From a virus (taxonomy: Duplodnaviria; Heunggongvirae; Uroviricota; Caudoviricetes): a stretch of DNA of 42,832 bases. Of this stretch, positions 11,562 through 18,442 are shown in pieces. The notes beneath the pieces are model-generated. The model worked only from the letters and a program-made list of their open reading frames with translations. It had not been told where the DNA came from and made no database searches. Position 1 is the stretch's first letter; each line of letters opens with the position of its first letter. The stretch lies in IMG/VR virus record IMGVR_UViG_2541047913_000006; one strand, written 5' to 3'. Made by a program: the position numbers and the translations under genes.

Positions 11562-12164
11562 ATGAAAGGTAATATTCTTGGGGATATCCGAGCTGAACAT
11601 GACGAAAAGATGTTGGAAGCTTCATTTTGGCAAACAACTGATTATAAAGCTCTTCTCGAATCCTACGATCGATGCATCATTGTTGGCCGCAGAGGAACAG
11701 GAAAAAGTGCTCTGGTGCATATGCTTTCCAAACATTGGCATGCTAAGCCAAAAACCTATGTGATGACTATTAGTCCGGTTGAAGAACAAATTATTGGATT
11801 AAGGGATGTTATTTCTTTATTTGGTGAAAATTACTTACATATAAAAGCCGGTAGCAAGTTAGCATGGCGATATGCTATTTATATGGAGCTGCTTTCTGAG
11901 ATCGCAAGTCATTACAAGATGAAAAACGATCTTGACTACAAAAGTGTAGAGTCGCATTTATTATCTTGGGGACCGAAGAGACAAAATATAAGTAGCAAAA
12001 TAAGAAAAAAATTGAACGCTATTCTCGATGATAACAAAAATATAAAACCAGCTACAAGAATAGCCGAATTATCCGATAAATTTGAACTTGACTTATTGGA
12101 AGAGGTGATAGAAGAAGCAATTTCGAAGTCAAATAATCAATTTGTTATTTTTGCTGATAGGCTT
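11562..12164 (+). pseudogene. P-loop NTPase gene, 3'-truncated by IS1 insertion
   Basis: Walker A CIIVGRRGTGKSALVHML near N-terminus; AT-rich; the reading frame runs into IS1 at 12165, and the last 27 codons of the track ORF (to 12245) are IS1-derived. Confidence 0.6.
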
Positions 12165-12179
12165 GGTAATGACTCCAAC

Positions 12180-12683
12180 TTACTGATAGTGTTTTATGTT
12201 CAGATAATGCCCGATGACCTTGTCATGCAGCTCCACCGATTTTGAGAACGACAGTGACTTCCGTCCCAGCCTTGCCAGATGTTGTCTCAGATTCAGATTA
12301 TGTCGCTCAATGCGCTGAGTGTAACGCTTGCTGATAACGTGCAGCTTTCCCTTCAGGCGTGATTCATACAGCGGCCAGCCATCCGTCATCCATACCACGA
12401 CCTCAAAGGCCGACAGCAGGCTCAGAAGACGCTCCAGTGTGGCCAGAGTGCGTTCACCGAAGACGTGCGCCACAACAGTCCTCCGTATCCTGTCATACGC
12501 GTAAAACAGCCAGCGCTGACGTGATTTAGCACCGACGTAGCCCCACTGTTCGTCCATTTCAGCGCAGACAATCACATCACTGCCCGGTTGTATGCGCGAG
12601 GTTACCGACTGCGGCCTGAGTTTTTTAAGTGACGTAAAACCGTGTTGAGGCCAACGCCCATAATGCGTGCACTGGCGCGACAT
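12180..12683 (-). CDS. insB: IS1 transposase InsB (167 aa)
   Basis: [64 protein letters not shown]... matches IS1 InsB. Confidence 0.9.
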
Positions 12684-12877
12684 CCGACGCCATTCATGGC
12701 CATATCAATGATTTTCTGGTGCGTACCGGGCTGAGAGGCGGTGTAAGTGAACTGTAGTTGCCATGTTTTACGGCAATGAGAGCAGAGATAGCGCTGATGT
12801 CCGGCAGTGCTTTTGCCGTTACGCACCACGCCTTCAGTAGCGGAGCAGGAAGGACATCTGATGGAAATGGAAGCCAC
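12602..12877 (-). CDS. insA: IS1 InsA (91 aa)
   Basis: [68 protein letters not shown]... matches IS1 InsA. Confidence 0.9.
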
Positions 12878-13049
12878 GCAAGCACCTTAAAATCACCATC
12901 ATACACTAAATCAGTAAGTTGGCAGCATTACCCACGCAGACTTTGTGTAAATGTTAACAAATGTGCGTTTTATTTGATCTGATTCGCTGTTTGAGCGTCC
13001 AAAACAACGGTATATATAATCCTTTACTATATGACATATGTGAGGAAAA

Positions 13050-13478
13050 ATGGGTTTTCGTAGCGCATCAATTCTTACGTTGATTATTAGTGGGATTATT
13101 ATCGGGTGCACTGATGCTGTATCGACAAATTATCATGACCGTACATCATATTACTCCGATAAAGCAATAGAGACACAGTATGTGAGTTCATCTGAACGTA
13201 CTTCTGATGTTAGTGAGGATATCCGTCTGTATGCCCATCAAATCAAGAGCGCCATCGAAAAACAGTTCGGGGATGCGAGTAAGTATTCAGGAAAAGAGTG
13301 TACACTGAGAATGCATATGGCCCCGAATGGCCTTCTACTGGAGGTTAAAAGAGAAAGTGGAGACCTCGATTTATGTCGTGAAGCGATGAATGCGATAAAG
13401 AATGCTGATATACCTGCCCCCCCTTCGCCGGAAGTATATAAAGTATTTCAAAATGGGGTGCTGGATTTTAAACCCTGA
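13050..13478 (+). CDS. Lipoprotein with TolA domain-III-like C-terminal domain
   Basis: Signal peptide with lipobox IIGC; C-terminus YAHQIKSAIEKQFGDASKYSGKECTLRMHMAPNGLLLEVKRESGDLDLCREAMNAIKNADIPAPPSPEVYKVFQNGVLDFKP resembles the TolA C-terminal domain as I recall it (...YAGQIKSAIESKFYDASSYAGKTCTLRIKLAPDGMLLDIKPEGGDPALCQAALAAAKLAKIPKPPSQAVYEVFKNAPLDFKP). Confidence 0.7.
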   Translation: MGFRSASILTLIISGIIIGCTDAVSTNYHDRTSYYSDKAIETQYVSSSERTSDVSEDIRLYAHQIKSAIEKQFGDASKYSGKECTLRMHMAPNGLLLEVKRESGDLDLCREAMNAIKNADIPAPPSPEVYKVFQNGVLDFKP

Positions 13479-13628
13479 TATTTATTGTTTTGTAATAAAC
13501 GGTTTCGGCTTAGGTTTGTTCTGACACAGCTACGGCACTGAGCTAAATTTAGCGGATAGTCAGCTCTGAGCCAGTGGCGGACGTAACAACTACTATTGCT
13601 GAGATTTTAATGGATTGAGGAGCAAGAA

Positions 13629-14024
13629 GTGGGATTAAAGAAAATCGTTATGTTGACTTTTTGGGTCGGTTTTGTTGCGGGATGCACACCTTTACACCCT
13701 TCAGATTGCCACAAAACTACTGCTACAGGTAGTTGCAGTTCAGGACGCTGGGATGATCAGGATGAATGGGGGGCGCAAGCGCGGGGAATCAGAGCTGCAA
13801 TTAATGCCAAACTTGATGAGCCGCATAACTGGAAAGGGAAAAAATGCAGGTTGCATATGGAATTCTCTCAGGATGGCACGGCGTTAAAAATATCTACCAG
13901 TAACGGTGATAAAGCCTATTGCGAAGCGATAAAGTCCGCAGCTCATAAAGCCAAATTTCCGGCCTTCAACAATCCGGAAGTCTACAGAGATTTTCAGAAA
14001 TCTGGCTTTGACATGCGAGGTTAG
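13629..14024 (+). CDS. Lipoprotein, divergent paralogue of the TolA-III-like lipoprotein
   Basis: GTG start with RBS GAGGA; lipobox VAGC; C-terminal KKCRLHMEFSQDGTALKISTSNGDKAYCEAIKSAAHKAKFPAFNNPEVYRDFQKSGFDM aligns with the upstream paralogue and TolA-III. Confidence 0.6.
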   Translation: MGLKKIVMLTFWVGFVAGCTPLHPSDCHKTTATGSCSSGRWDDQDEWGAQARGIRAAINAKLDEPHNWKGKKCRLHMEFSQDGTALKISTSNGDKAYCEAIKSAAHKAKFPAFNNPEVYRDFQKSGFDMRG

Positions 14025-14149
14025 CTCTTCAATTACTATATCTCATTCATAGCAAACTGACAGATTTGATGATGTTCTATATACGAAACCTGTGATGTCA
14101 AGTCTGAGCTAATACAAATAAACATAATATCAGAGAAATACATTTTATT

Positions 14150-14172
14150 AGCTCGCTACGGCGAGCTTTTTA
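14150..14172 (+). terminator. Intrinsic terminator (possible tR'-like, or terminator of the lipoprotein operon)
   Basis: Hairpin AGCTCGC-TACG-GCGAGCT followed by TTTTT, about 100 nt upstream of the holin start. Confidence 0.45.
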
Positions 14173-14275
14173 TATTGCATCGTCTCCAGCATATATATCA
14201 ATTAAGGCTCTGATTGATGTGTCTGAAAGCCTACACATAATAACTATGCCATCCGTTCCGTGCGGAGGTGAGGCT

Positions 14276-14491
14276 ATGAAATCCATGGACAAAATTTCAA
14301 CAGGCATTGCCTACGGCACCTCCGCAGGCAGTGCTGGCTACTGGTTTTTACAGTTGCTCGATAGAGTAACTCCGTCACAGTGGGCTGCAATCGGTGTGCT
14401 GGGTAGTCTGGTATTTGGCCTACTGACGTACCTGACAAACCTTTATTTCAAGATTAAAGAAGATAAGCGCAAGGCTGCGAGAGGTGAATAA
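14276..14491 (+). CDS. Holin (class II, EssD/S21-like, 71 aa)
   Basis: [71 protein letters not shown]; two TM segments; dual-start motif MKSM; RBS GGAGGTGAG; 1-nt overlap (TAATG) with endolysin. Confidence 0.8.
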
Positions 14492-14988
14492 TGCCTCCAT
14501 CATTACGAAAAGTCGTTGCTGCTGCTATTGGTGGCGGAGCAATTGCTATAGCATCAGTGTTAATCACTGGCCCAAGTGGTAACGATGGTCTGGAAGGTGT
14601 CAGCTACATACCATACAAAGATATTGTTGGTGTATGGACTGTATGTCACGGGCATACAGTAAAAGACATCATGCTCGGTAAAACGTATACCAAAGCAGAA
14701 TGCAAAACACTCTTGAATAAAGACCTTGCCACGGTCGCCAGACAAATTAACCCGTACATCAAAGTCGATATACCGGAAACAACGCGCGGCGCTCTTTACT
14801 CATTCGTTTACAACGTGGGTGCTGGCAATTTCAGAACATCGACGCTTCTTCGCAAAATAAACCAGGGCGATATCAAAGGCGCATGTGATCAGCTACGTCG
14901 CTGGACATATGCTGGCGGTAAGCAATGGAAAGGTCTCATGACTCGTCGTGAGATTGAGCGTGAAATCTGTTTGTGGGGTCAGCAATGA
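14491..14988 (+). CDS. SAR endolysin (GH24 lysozyme, R21/RrrD-like)
   Basis: 165 aa; N-terminal Gly/Ala-rich signal-anchor-release segment ([20 protein letters not shown]); lysozyme motifs (EG..Y.PY.D..G..T.G.GHT). Confidence 0.85.
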
Positions 14989-15286
14989 ACAGAGTAACCG
15001 CGATTATCTCCGCTCTGGTTATCTGCATCGTCGTCTGCCTGTCATGGGCTGTTAATCATTACCGTGATAACGCCATCGCCTACAAAGAACAGCGCGACAA
15101 AAATGCCAGAGAACTGAAGCTGGCGAACGCGGCAATTACTGACATGCAGATGCGTCAGCGTGATGTTGCTGCGCTCGATGCAAAATACACGAAGGAGTTA
15201 GCTGATGCGAAAGCTGAAAATGATGCTCTGCGTGATGATGTTGCCGCTGGTCGTCGTCGGTTGCGCATCAAAGCAGTCTGTCAGTC
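14985..15286 (+). pseudogene. rzpR: Rz i-spanin, N-terminal fragment (interrupted by IS3)
   Basis: [21 protein letters not shown]...[14 protein letters not shown] then frame enters IS3 at 15287; ATGA overlap with endolysin stop. Confidence 0.8.
15205..15286 (+). pseudogene. rzoR: Rz1 o-spanin lipoprotein, N-terminal fragment embedded in +1 frame of Rz (interrupted by IS3)
   Basis: [27 protein letters not shown]; lipobox VVGC; continues after IS3 at 16547-16651 (QCVKPPPPPAWIMQSPPDWQTPLNGIISPSGNDW). Confidence 0.75.
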
Positions 15287-15316
15287 TGATCCTACCCACG
15301 TAATATGGACACAGGC

Positions 15317-16183
15317 CTAAGCGAGGTTCTTGTTTTCAAATTGTTCCGGACTGAGGCCGCCACACCAACTGTGCCGCCGCCACCGATTGTAATCACATTC
15401 GATATAATTAAACACCGTTGCCCGCATTATTTCCCGGCTGATAAAGTGTTCTCCATGGATACATTCCACTTTCAGCGAATGAAAGAAGCTTTCCACGCAG
15501 GCATTATCGTAGCAGCAACCTTTTGCGCTCATACTTCCACGCAGATTATGCCGCTTCAGTTGCGCCTGATAATCTGCTGAACAGTACTGGCCTCCACGGT
15601 CCGTGTGAACGATAACGTTCCGGGGCCTCTTACGCCGCCACAGCGCCATCTGCAGGGCATCGCAGGCCAGTTGCGCCGTCATGCGTGGCGACATTGACCA
15701 GCCAATAACGGCACGTGACCACAGGTCAATGACCACTGCCAGATACAGCCAGCCTTCATCTGTACGTAAGTACGTGATGTCTCCTGCCCACTTCTGGTTC
15801 GGGCCACTGGCGTAAAAATCCTGCTCCAACAGATTTTCTGACACAGGCAGGCCGTGTGCGCGGTAGCTGACCGGGCTGAACTTCCGGGAGGCCTTTGCCC
15901 TCAGTCCCTGACGGCGCAGGCTTGCCGCCACGGTTTTTACGTTAAAGGGGTAACCCTGAGCACGCAGTTCATCCGTCAGGCGTGGGGCACCGTAACGCTG
16001 TTTTGACCGGGTAAAAGCCGCGAGGACAACGCTGTCGCAGTGTTGGCGGAACTGCTGACGCGTGCTTATCCTTGTCCGCCGCTGACACCACGTATACCAG
16101 CCGCTGCGGGCCACCCGGAGCACGCGGCACATTGCTTTGATGCTGAACTCAGCCTGATGTTTTTCAATAAAGACATACTTCAT
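15317..16183 (-). CDS. insF: IS3 transposase OrfB (InsF, 288 aa)
   Basis: DDE integrase-type transposase, [32 protein letters not shown]...; matches IS3 InsF. Confidence 0.9.
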
Positions 16184-16479
16184 TTCAGGCGCTTCGCGAA
16201 GTATGTCGCGGCCTTTTGGAGGATAGCCAGCTCTTCATCCCGTTCTGCCAGCTGGCGTTTGAGACGTGCAATCTCGGTAGACATCTCCAGTTCACGTTCA
16301 GAAGACGTCTGCTGATTTTGCTGTTTACTGCGCCAGTTGTAGAGTTGTGATTCATACAGGCTGAGTTCACGGGCTGCGGCAGTAACACCGATGCGTTCAG
16401 CAAGCTTCAGGGCTTCACTGCGAAATTCAGGCGAATGCTGTTTACGGGGTTTTTTACTGGTTGATACTGTTTTTGTCAT
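16180..16479 (-). CDS. insE: IS3 OrfA (InsE, 99 aa)
   Basis: [32 protein letters not shown]...; HTH; overlaps insF as expected for -1 frameshift fusion. Confidence 0.85.
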
Positions 16480-16544
16480 GTGAGTCACCTCTGACTGAGA
16501 GTTTACTCACTTAGCCGCGTGTCCACTATTGCTGGGTAAGATCA

Positions 16545-16710
16545 GTCAGTGCGTGAAGCCACCGCCACCTCCAGCGTGGATAATGCAGTCTCCCCCAGAC
16601 TGGCAGACACCGCTGAACGGGATTATTTCACCCTCCGGGAACGACTGGTAATGATGCAGGCCCAACTTGAAGGTGCTCAGCAATACATAACCGAACAGTG
16701 TTTAAAGTAA
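16545..16710 (+). pseudogene. rzpR: Rz i-spanin, C-terminal fragment (after IS3)
   Basis: After removing IS3 and one GTC copy, the frame continues ...AVCQSVREATATSSVDNAVSPRLADTAERDYFTLRERLVMMQAQLEGAQQYITEQCLK with stop at 16708-16710. Confidence 0.75.
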
Positions 16711-16847
16711 AATCTTAACTACAATATGATTCATTTTGATGATTGTTTCATAAGGAACAGTGAAGTAAGATCTAAGAGGAGTTAAATTTTATACAGTATA
16801 ATCATAATATTGCAGCAAGGTGGTTATAATTGAAAGAATATTTAGAT

Positions 16848-18305
16848 ATGAATACATCTCATGTAAGAGTTGTTACTCATATGTGTGGGTTCCTGGTTTG
16901 GCTCTATAGTCTTTCAATGTTGCCACCAATGGTTGTAGCATTGTTTTATAAAGAAAAAAGCCTGTTCGTTTTCTTTATAACTTTCGTTATATTTTTTTGC
17001 ATTGGTGGCGGAGCGTGGTATACAACTAAGAAATCTGGCATTCAATTACGTACCCGTGATGGGTTTATTATAATTGTAATGTTTTGGATTTTGTTTTCTG
17101 TTATTAGTGCATTCCCTTTATGGTTTGACTCAGAACTTAATTTAACGTTCATTGATGCTCTGTTTGAAGGGGTTTCTGGAATAACAACAACAGGAGCAAC
17201 TGTAATTGATGATGTTAGTTCATTACCTCGGGCATATTTGTACTATCGGTCACAGTTAAATTTTATAGGTGGTTTAGGAGTTATTGTTCTGGCGGTTGCA
17301 GTATTGCCATTATTGGGTATTGGTGGTGCAAAGCTTTATCAGTCAGAAATGCCGGGGCCATTTAAGGATGACAAACTCACTCCCCGCCTGGCCGATACGT
17401 CACGGACACTGTGGATAACTTATTCTTTATTAGGTATTGCTTGTATTGTCTGTTATAGACTTGCAGGAATGCCTTTGTTTGATGCTATTTGTCACGGGAT
17501 TTCCACAGTTTCGCTTGGTGGTTTCTCAACTCATAGCGAGAGTATCGGATATTTTAATAACTATTTGGTTGAGCTGGTGGCTGGTTCTTTTTCCCTGCTA
17601 TCGGCTTTCAACTTCACTCTTTGGTATATTGTTATTAGCAGAAAAACGATAAAACCTTTAATCAGAGATATTGAACTTCGTTTCTTTCTGTTAATAGCCT
17701 TAGGGGTGATCATTGTTACCTCTTTCCAGGTCTGGCATATAGGTATGTATGACTTGCATGGAAGTTTTATTCATTCGTTTTTTCTTGCCAGCTCCATGCT
17801 CACTGATAATGGTTTAGCTACGCAGGATTATGCAAACTGGCCCACGCACACGATAGTGTTTTTGCTGTTGTCAAGTTTCTTTGGGGGATGTATAGGTTCA
17901 ACCTGTGGTGGAATTAAGTCACTTCGATTTCTTATACTTTTCAAACAAAGCAAACACGAGATAAATCAGCTTTCTCATCCCAGAGCGTTGTTGAGTGTAA
18001 ATGTAGGAGGGAAGATAGTTACAGATCGTGTAATGAGGTCTGTATGGAGTTTCTTTTTTCTTTATACTCTCTTCACGGTGTTTTTTATACTGGTGTTAAA
18101 TGGTATGGGATATGATTTTCTTACATCATTTGCAACAGTGGCTGCATGTATTAATAATATGGGATTAGGTTTTGGGGCTACTGCATCGTCATTCGGAGTG
18201 CTTAATGACATTGCAAAATATTTAATGTGCATAGCTATGATTCTTGGTCGCCTTGAAATTTATCCTGTTATTATATTGTTTTCAGGTTTTTTTTGGCGCT
18301 CCTAA
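16848..18305 (+). CDS. trkG: Trk-system potassium uptake protein TrkG (485 aa)
   Basis: MNTSHVRVVTHMCGFLVWLYSLSMLPPMVVALFYKEKSLF...; multi-pass membrane protein; AT-rich gene; matches Rac trkG as I recall it. Confidence 0.9.
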   Translation: MNTSHVRVVTHMCGFLVWLYSLSMLPPMVVALFYKEKSLFVFFITFVIFFCIGGGAWYTTKKSGIQLRTRDGFIIIVMFWILFSVISAFPLWFDSELNLTFIDALFEGVSGITTTGATVIDDVSSLPRAYLYYRSQLNFIGGLGVIVLAVAVLPLLGIGGAKLYQSEMPGPFKDDKLTPRLADTSRTLWITYSLLGIACIVCYRLAGMPLFDAICHGISTVSLGGFSTHSESIGYFNNYLVELVAGSFSLLSAFNFTLWYIVISRKTIKPLIRDIELRFFLLIALGVIIVTSFQVWHIGMYDLHGSFIHSFFLASSMLTDNGLATQDYANWPTHTIVFLLLSSFFGGCIGSTCGGIKSLRFLILFKQSKHEINQLSHPRALLSVNVGGKIVTDRVMRSVWSFFFLYTLFTVFFILVLNGMGYDFLTSFATVAACINNMGLGFGATASSFGVLNDIAKYLMCIAMILGRLEIYPVIILFSGFFWRS

Positions 18306-18442
18306 TATATGGCTGATTTATAATTGTGAGTTTAATATTATGTTGACTCACTCATTGATCCAATACCTAACTTTACCAGCAACACCTCCGCCCCCAGTAG
18401 CACTGGCTGCTGGGGTGCGTTTTATTCATAAAGCAAGGCTGT

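Follow-up and report, generated by a model that had tools for sequence, protein, structure and literature searches.

An IS3 insertion interrupts the overlapping genes of the Rz/Rz1 spanin in a Rac-like prophage from the Escherichia coli UMEA 3201-1 lineage

In the prophage analysed here, an IS3 element lies within the overlapping spanin genes Rz and Rz1, the products of which would serve to disrupt the outer membrane at lysis. This raises the question of whether a single transposition event accounts for the interruption and what it would mean for lysis. The locus was studied within a stretch of 42,832 nucleotides, which is referred to as the window in the following. Window positions 11985-18320 (6336 bp) are 100% identical to KE701986.1 from E. 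coli UMEA 3201-1, the assembly of which (GCA_000460755.1) is a scaffold-level draft. From the data presented below, we conclude with high confidence that one IS3 transposition into Rz/Rz1 of a Rac-like prophage beside ttcA, as part of IS-driven decay, took place in the UMEA 3201-1 lineage.

The window contains a Rac-like lambdoid prophage that is integrated beside ttcA. It starts at intR and continues with xisR, ralR, recT/recE, kilR, sieB, ydaT/ydaV-type genes, the lysis cassette, trkG, and the terminase gene, after which portal, head and tail genes, J, and lom follow, before it runs into stfR. Many genomes align collinearly with the morphogenesis region (window positions 18300-42832) as one unbroken piece of 99.7% identity, and no further large lesion is visible in the alignment of this region. 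The Rac-like character is marked by the cargo gene that follows the lysis cassette:

16848..18305, plus strand: trkG, a moron (cargo) gene directly downstream of Rz

The insertion element itself and its immediate flanks comprise the following features:

15284-15286: left copy of the target duplication, GTC, which is present as a single copy at the empty site of E. coli strain 64
15287-16544, minus strand: IS3, exactly 1258 bp
15287-15325 and 16506-16544: imperfect inverted repeats of IS3
16479 down to 16180, minus strand: orfA of IS3, 99 aa with a helix-turn-helix (HTH) region; Pfam HTH_Tnp_1
16183 down to 15317, minus strand: orfB of IS3, 288 aa, DDE/rve type; Pfam HTH_21, rve, and rve_2
16213-16217: A-AAA-G motif for a -1 frameshift, just before the ATGA overlap of orfA and orfB
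16545-16547: right copy of the target duplication, GTC, directly to the right of IS3

The element starts with TGATCC and ends with GATCA, and its terminal inverted repeats are complementary at 28 of 39 positions. From the position of the A-AAA-G motif, orfA and orfB are predicted to be joined via a programmed -1 frameshift. Sequence comparison with the annotated IS3 copies in two other E. coli loci (L001 and L009) yielded 0 base differences, whereby the identical copies carry the RefSeq label [quoted passage not shown] Copies with at least 99% identity are present in at least 4076 E. coli records, with a median of 3 places per genome. The length, which lies in the family range of about 1.2-1.5 kb, the TG...CA ends, the orfA/orfB arrangement, the 3-bp target duplication, and the near-identity to known copies all assign the element to the IS3 family. 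Thus, the ends, the Pfam domains, and the identity to annotated copies bear out the initial annotation of the window, which had described a 1258-bp IS3 at 15287-16544.

The same annotation had reported a 3-bp GTC duplication at the insertion site. GTC is indeed present on both flanks of IS3, where the duplication cannot be extended beyond 3 bp, and it occurs only once at the corresponding site of E. coli strain 64 (NZ_CP142590). A 3-bp match arises by chance with a probability of 1/64. The decisive test of the insertion is the natural empty site in strain 64, which carries a full-length Rac-like prophage without IS3 at this position. Its sequence across the empty site reads AAAGCAGTCTGTCAGTCAGTGCG. 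When IS3 and one GTC were removed from window region 14000-17400, the remaining sequence aligned with that of strain 64 without any gap and with 2 mismatches in 2140 bp. This confirms that IS3 has been inserted at this site and that the flanking triplets are not a chance pattern. A comparison with intact spanin loci, which had been recommended with the annotation, was thereby carried out not only with strain 64, as the restored sequence also aligns to isolated phages. Along the entire restored holin-to-Rz block, the identity to the isolated phage vB_EcoS-683R6 amounts to 97.4%, and a holin, a lysozyme, and a spanin are annotated in the matching block of this phage. With several phages for which growth on K-12 or ECOR13 is recorded, the restored block shares an identity of about 96%.

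As the window sequence stems from a draft at scaffold level and IS3 is a repeat with multiple copies, it might be that the arrangement is an assembly artefact or resulted from recombination between two IS3 copies instead of a simple insertion. However, the flanks are contiguous at the natural empty site, and the 3-bp duplication is perfect. Moreover, the independent assembly GCA_002207705.1 possesses a contig (L019) that shows the left junction of the window and breaks off within IS3, and another one (L027) that begins within IS3 and shows the right junction, reading GATCA followed by GTCAGTGCG, so that both junctions are identical to those of the window. An artefact or a recombination between copies is thus extremely unlikely. 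The reading preferred here is a single, standard IS3 transposition, which hit the overlapping Rz/Rz1 genes and produced the usual 3-bp duplication of GTC.

The insertion divides the two spanin genes into the following parts, to which the restored genes are added:

14985..15286, plus strand: 5' part of Rz, codons 1-100 and 2 nt of codon 101
15205..15286, plus strand, +1 frame within Rz: 5' part of Rz1 with the signal peptide, the lipobox Cys20, and the residues up to 27
16548..16651, plus strand: 3' part of Rz1 with Cys29, PPPPP (residues 32-36), and the C-terminus
16548..16710, plus strand: 3' part of Rz with the last nt of codon 101, codons 102-154, and the stop codon
14985 to 16710 after excision, plus strand: restored Rz (i-spanin), 154 aa; Pfam Phage_lysis, 1.2e-51
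Start 15205, stop 16651, plus strand, +1 frame: restored Rz1 (o-spanin), 61 aa; Pfam Rz1, 1.1e-18

The Rz start codon overlaps the stop codon of the endolysin gene (ATGA), and an AAGGAG Shine-Dalgarno sequence is located upstream of Rz1. As had been proposed before, the overlapping genes are cleanly broken, and the breaks follow codon 100 of Rz and codon 27 of Rz1. In the interrupted Rz frame, the 100 native codons are extended by a short tail that is read from the target duplication and then 10 codons into IS3 up to a stop at 15320, which results in a 111-aa product that has been deposited as EQX97505.1 under the name “phage murein endopeptidase.” In the interrupted Rz1 frame, the 27 native codons are followed by 5 more, and the 32-aa product is devoid of Cys29 and the penta-proline motif. 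In silico excision of IS3 together with one GTC, a check that had also been suggested with the annotation, restored a continuous 154-aa Rz and a 61-aa Rz1. The Phage_lysis match covers residues 29-152 of the restored Rz, which has a hydrophobic N-terminus and retains Cys99 and Cys152. Rz1 lies entirely within Rz, with its stop codon at 16651 being internal to the latter, and presents Cys20 after LVVVG, Cys29, and PPPPP at residues 32-36. The restored genes thus fit the sequence-level definition of an embedded two-component spanin of the lambda Rz/Rz1 type. In the window itself the reading frames are interrupted, and the locus represents a disrupted member of this family. With domain positions taken from lambda Rz, coiled-coil 2 and Cys152 are assigned to the 3' part of Rz, beyond IS3 (PMC5295617).

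The two lysis genes upstream of Rz were described as intact in the initial annotation, and both reading frames are in fact uninterrupted:

14276..14491, plus strand: pinholin gene of the phage-21 type (S21), 71 aa, frame intact; Pfam PF04971 Phage_holin_2_1, 2.1e-35
14491..14988, plus strand: SAR endolysin gene (R21/RrrD type), 165 aa, frame intact; Pfam Phage_lysozyme, 5.7e-45

The pinholin has the N-terminus MKSMDK, in which Met is encoded at positions 1 and 4, and is identical to the EssD protein of strain 64. The endolysin yields full-length matches of about 1e-109 to the structures PDB 3HDE (R21) and 4ZPU (RrrD) and contains E35, D44, and T50, which by the R21 positions we take to be the Glu-Asp-Thr catalytic triad. 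Judged from the sequence, the cassette is of the phage-21 type, with a pinholin and an endolysin that has an N-terminal signal-anchor-release (SAR) segment, and not of the lambda S/R type. The endolysin also carries a G57V substitution. Val57 was seen only in the lineage of the window, whereas residue 57 is Gly in 12 of 12 other cluster members that were inspected, as it is in the structures of R21 and RrrD. This substitution was considered as a possible cause of endolysin failure, given the Gly in the relatives, but a distant solved homologue has Val in the column that aligns to residue 57.

For the consequences of the insertion, lambda genetics serves as a guide. In lambda, lysis fails with all Rz nonsense mutations up to codon 151, and the C-terminal part of Rz contacts Rz1. 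Lambda Rz1 depends on its proline-rich region and tolerates truncation no further back than residue 55 (PMC5295617). If either spanin subunit is defective, spherical cells bounded by the outer membrane are formed, which are stabilised by Mg2+ (PMC5295617). By analogy, Rz of the window would be deprived of coiled-coil 2 and of its C-terminal Rz1-contact region, and Rz1 would be deprived of Cys29 and the essential proline-rich region. Since essential C-terminal parts are missing in both Rz and Rz1, we infer from the lambda Rz/Rz1 genetics that both spanin subunits would be null. In an otherwise competent prophage, the pinholin would be expected to trigger and the SAR endolysin to degrade the cell wall, after which lysis would presumably stall at the stage of Mg2+-stabilised spheres. 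The initial annotation had proposed to look for such spherical cells “in the absence of divalent cations”; this condition is reversed, as it is Mg2+ that stabilises them (PMC5295617).

It had further been claimed that the prophage would be defective specifically in the outer-membrane step of lysis. This has to be seen in the light of a second lesion upstream of the lysis genes, which becomes apparent in the alignment with strain 64, the nearest intact relative:

12165-12932, minus strand: IS1-like element, 768 bp, which replaces 4512 bp present in strain 64

The lost 4512 bp include most of a gene for a Sll1717-family P-loop ATPase, a hok remnant, NinB-like and DUF1364 genes, as well as a DUF1133 gene that matches PHROG 753 (phrog_753), “anti-termination protein Q-like,” at 4e-79. 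Also lost are about 930 bp downstream of the Q-like gene, where the late promoter is expected to be located and where, in strain 64, a terminator-like hairpin comes after a promoter-like site. By its PHROG family label and its genome position, the lost DUF1133 protein is a putative late activator. A tblastn search detected no copy of the Q-like gene in the whole window, which departs in this respect from a Q-dependent lambdoid late operon, where a Q-type antiterminator gene and its promoter/qut region lie upstream of the lysis genes. A terminator-like hairpin just upstream of the holin gene (14150-14167) is still present. As the Q-like gene and its downstream region are lost, the late genes, those for lysis among them, are probably silent in UMEA 3201-1 regardless of IS3. 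A low level of Q-independent expression would be possible from a weak promoter-like site just upstream of the holin gene (14214-14241; 9 of 12 matches). At the junctions between IS3 and Rz, a consensus promoter scan detected no outward or hybrid promoter directed to trkG or in antisense. In the UMEA 3201-1 prophage, the IS3 lesion would hence be accompanied by at least one further disabling hit. The claim of a specific outer-membrane defect does not hold for the genome of the window, which has lost the Q-like gene, and is reasonable for the sister assembly GCA_002207705.1.

In the sister assembly, the upstream region can be aligned to strain 64 without a break, the Q-like gene included. Since GCA_002207705.1 has both the IS3 junctions and the Q-like gene, the IS3 insertion probably preceded the IS1-linked deletion, as parsimony over the two assemblies suggests. 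According to this order, IS3 would have hit a prophage that was still able to transcribe its late genes, and the IS1-linked deletion would have occurred later in the UMEA 3201-1 branch; the IS1-associated deletion might also have been an event separate from the IS3 insertion. The deletion junction is absent from 5426 complete E. coli genomes.

The question remains whether the position of IS3 reflects chance, a preferred target, or selection. In the 5426 complete E. coli genomes, IS3 is located in or within about 1.7 kb of the essD-rrrD-Rz cassette in 50 distinct genomes, whereby the orientation is as in the window in 17 genomes and opposite in 34. The 16 cassette IS3 loci that were examined represent at least 14 distinct sites, most of them with 3-bp duplications. 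For example, strain 2017.01.04CC (L001) has IS3 49 bp upstream of the window site with an ATG duplication, other insertions within Rz/Rz1 have CAC, AAA, GCC, and TAT duplications, and further ones interrupt the endolysin gene or lie at the stop codon of the holin gene. From the first matches it had appeared that other genomes share both site and orientation with the window; this was rejected, as the junctions differ. The shared orientation was a product of the search, which joined pieces on one strand, and a query with reversed IS3 found more cases.

It could be that the window site is a sequence-specific IS3 hotspot, so that target preference rather than chance determined the position. A GTC site at window-equivalent position 14601 has received IS3 in three loci (L008, L012, and L014) and in both orientations, and it has GTC|AG like the window site. 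On the other hand, the exact IS3/Rz junction of the window is present in 0 of the 5426 complete genomes and is also absent from the GTDB species-representative genomes, the other Rz insertions have hit other positions, where the triplets bear no relation to GTC (ATG, CAC, AAA, GCC, TAT), and the cassette is overall not hit more frequently than a control segment. A hotspot is thus highly unlikely.

The control was an equal-sized segment of the terminase gene from the same type of prophage, which was searched with both IS3 orientations. It contained IS3 in 4 (1 + 3) of about 680 carrying genomes, in comparison with 50 of at least 3682 genomes that carry a near-full-length cassette. This gives an odds ratio of 2.3 (p = 0.13), with genomes counted that are not independent events. 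The excess of IS3 in the lysis cassette over the terminase control is therefore not significant, and neither a hotspot nor selection is demonstrated by it, while a roughly two-fold excess may be compatible with the data. These numbers also bear on the possibility that the insertion was selected by the host, whereby knocking out the last lysis step would let lysogens survive spontaneous induction, in the sense of prophage domestication. Such selection would fit to the 50 affected genomes and the many distinct sites in the cassette, as well as to small frameshifts that break Rz/Rz1 in other Rac-like prophages. Against it stand the non-significant odds ratio over non-independent genomes and the consideration that a spanin-null cell would not be viable after holin and endolysin have fired, which makes a benefit to the host doubtful. 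Overall, host selection of this insertion appears improbable. In its general form, i.e., that lysis cassettes of resident Rac-like and other lambdoid prophages in E. coli suffer inactivation more frequently than other prophage parts owing to a benefit for the host, with this IS3 insertion as one instance of a convergent, selected means of “disarming,” the idea is speculative and only slightly less doubtful. Lesions of this “disarming” kind would include IS3 insertions as well as slippage at a C5 run inside Rz/Rz1. The single, standard transposition remains the reading that we prefer.

The IS3 insertion in Rz/Rz1 is real, well explained, and ordinary. In the literature, no description of the window allele or of IS3 in Rz was found, and the retrieved reports were general accounts of prophage decay and of spanin genetics. 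It is well known that resident IS elements inactivate prophage genes by insertion, and this has been described in such general accounts of prophage decay (PMC6379469). The overall picture is that of routine, stepwise IS-driven prophage decay and is a textbook case, the importance of which is slight beyond annotation. For the annotation, the allele accounts for the 111-aa protein EQX97505.1 and for a stray C-terminal Rz fragment in the GenBank entries of UMEA 3201-1. It also provides a clean, datable marker of a small lineage, with the IS3 insertion as the probable first and the IS1-linked loss of the Q-like gene as the second event. If the sister strain with the Q-like gene were inducible, it would represent a natural spanin-null lysogen for a cassette of the phage-21 type.

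In comparison with known systems, the element has no detectable difference to the E. coli IS3 (IS3 family, IS3 group), with which it shares the length, the ends, the inverted repeats of about 39 bp, orfA/orfB, the frameshift site, and the 3-bp duplication; its location alone is peculiar to the UMEA 3201-1 lineage. The prophage has the ttcA site, intR, xisR, ralR, and recET in common with K-12 Rac and with full-length Rac-like prophages such as that of strain 64, and further shares kilR, sieB, ydaT, ydaV, and the position of trkG after the lysis genes with the Rac prophages. The prophage of the window retains morphogenesis genes that K-12 Rac is not known to possess. In contrast to its Rac-like relatives, it has two lesions of its own, namely IS3 in Rz/Rz1 and the IS1-linked 4.5-kb deletion. 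With regard to S21/R21 of phage 21 and essD/rrrD of K-12 DLP12, the holin matches the Pfam family “Bacteriophage P21 holin S” and the endolysin matches over its full length, while differing by G57V and a few other substitutions, and the spanin of the window is disrupted. The restored spanin genes share the embedded +1 architecture directly after the endolysin gene with lambda Rz/Rz1 and with rzpD/rzoD and rzpR/rzoR of K-12. Like in lambda, the restored Rz possesses an N-terminal transmembrane segment, Cys99, and Cys152, and the restored Rz1 possesses Cys20, Cys29, and PPPPP. Unlike lambda Rz/Rz1 and the K-12 homologues, both genes of the window are split by IS3, so that neither full-length product is possible.

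Complete E. coli genomes were surveyed for IS3 copies within or beside essD-rrrD-Rz lysis cassettes, and such copies were present in 50 of the 5426 genomes, in both orientations. The loci examined (L001, L003-L017) represent at least 14 distinct insertion sites, which lie between the window equivalents of 14491 and 16626; 3-bp duplications were found at most of these sites and adjacent deletions at a few. For a terminase control of equal size, the rate of IS3 insertion was comparable to that of the cassette (odds ratio 2.3, p = 0.13).

Rz and Rz1 are also broken by small lesions in other Rac-like or related prophages from further E. coli assemblies (L021-L026). These lesions sit at or near a five-C run equivalent to window 16591-16595 and comprise one additional C (three assemblies), a loss of 2 bp (two assemblies), and a 13-bp insertion (one assembly), whereby some of those at the homopolymer may be sequencing errors.

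Further features of the window flank or belong to the lysis cassette:

12165-12932, IS1-like element (768 bp, approximately 91% identity to IS1A)
12991-13020, promoter-like site
13050-13478 and 13629-14024, two tandem genes whose small products both belong to PHROG 5772 and carry a TolA C-terminal domain
14150-14167, terminator-like hairpin
14659-14661, endolysin codon 57 (Val)
16848-18305, cargo gene trkG (Trk potassium transporter)

Gly occupies position 57 (motif HGHTGKD) in the R21 and RrrD endolysin structures, as it does in each of the 12 further cluster members that were read. Val57 is shared by the sister assembly GCA_002207705.1, which bears the same IS3 insertion, and Val also occupies the aligned column in one distant solved homologue.

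Upstream of the cassette, in the region 11562-12932, the IS1-like element, which has no flanking duplication, replaces 4512 bp that include NinB-like, DUF1364, and Q-like antiterminator genes, and it cuts short a gene for an Sll1717-family P-loop ATPase, whose version in strain 64 has 689 aa. The TolA-domain gene pair, which separates the holin from the lost Q region and is preceded by the promoter-like site and followed by the hairpin, looks like a cargo cassette (moron).

On the other side, trkG starts approximately 300 bp downstream of the IS3 insertion, and a search of the IS3 junction upstream of it yielded no promoter-like site. The gene follows the lysis cassette and precedes the terminase genes, and it occupies the same position in other Rac-like prophages.
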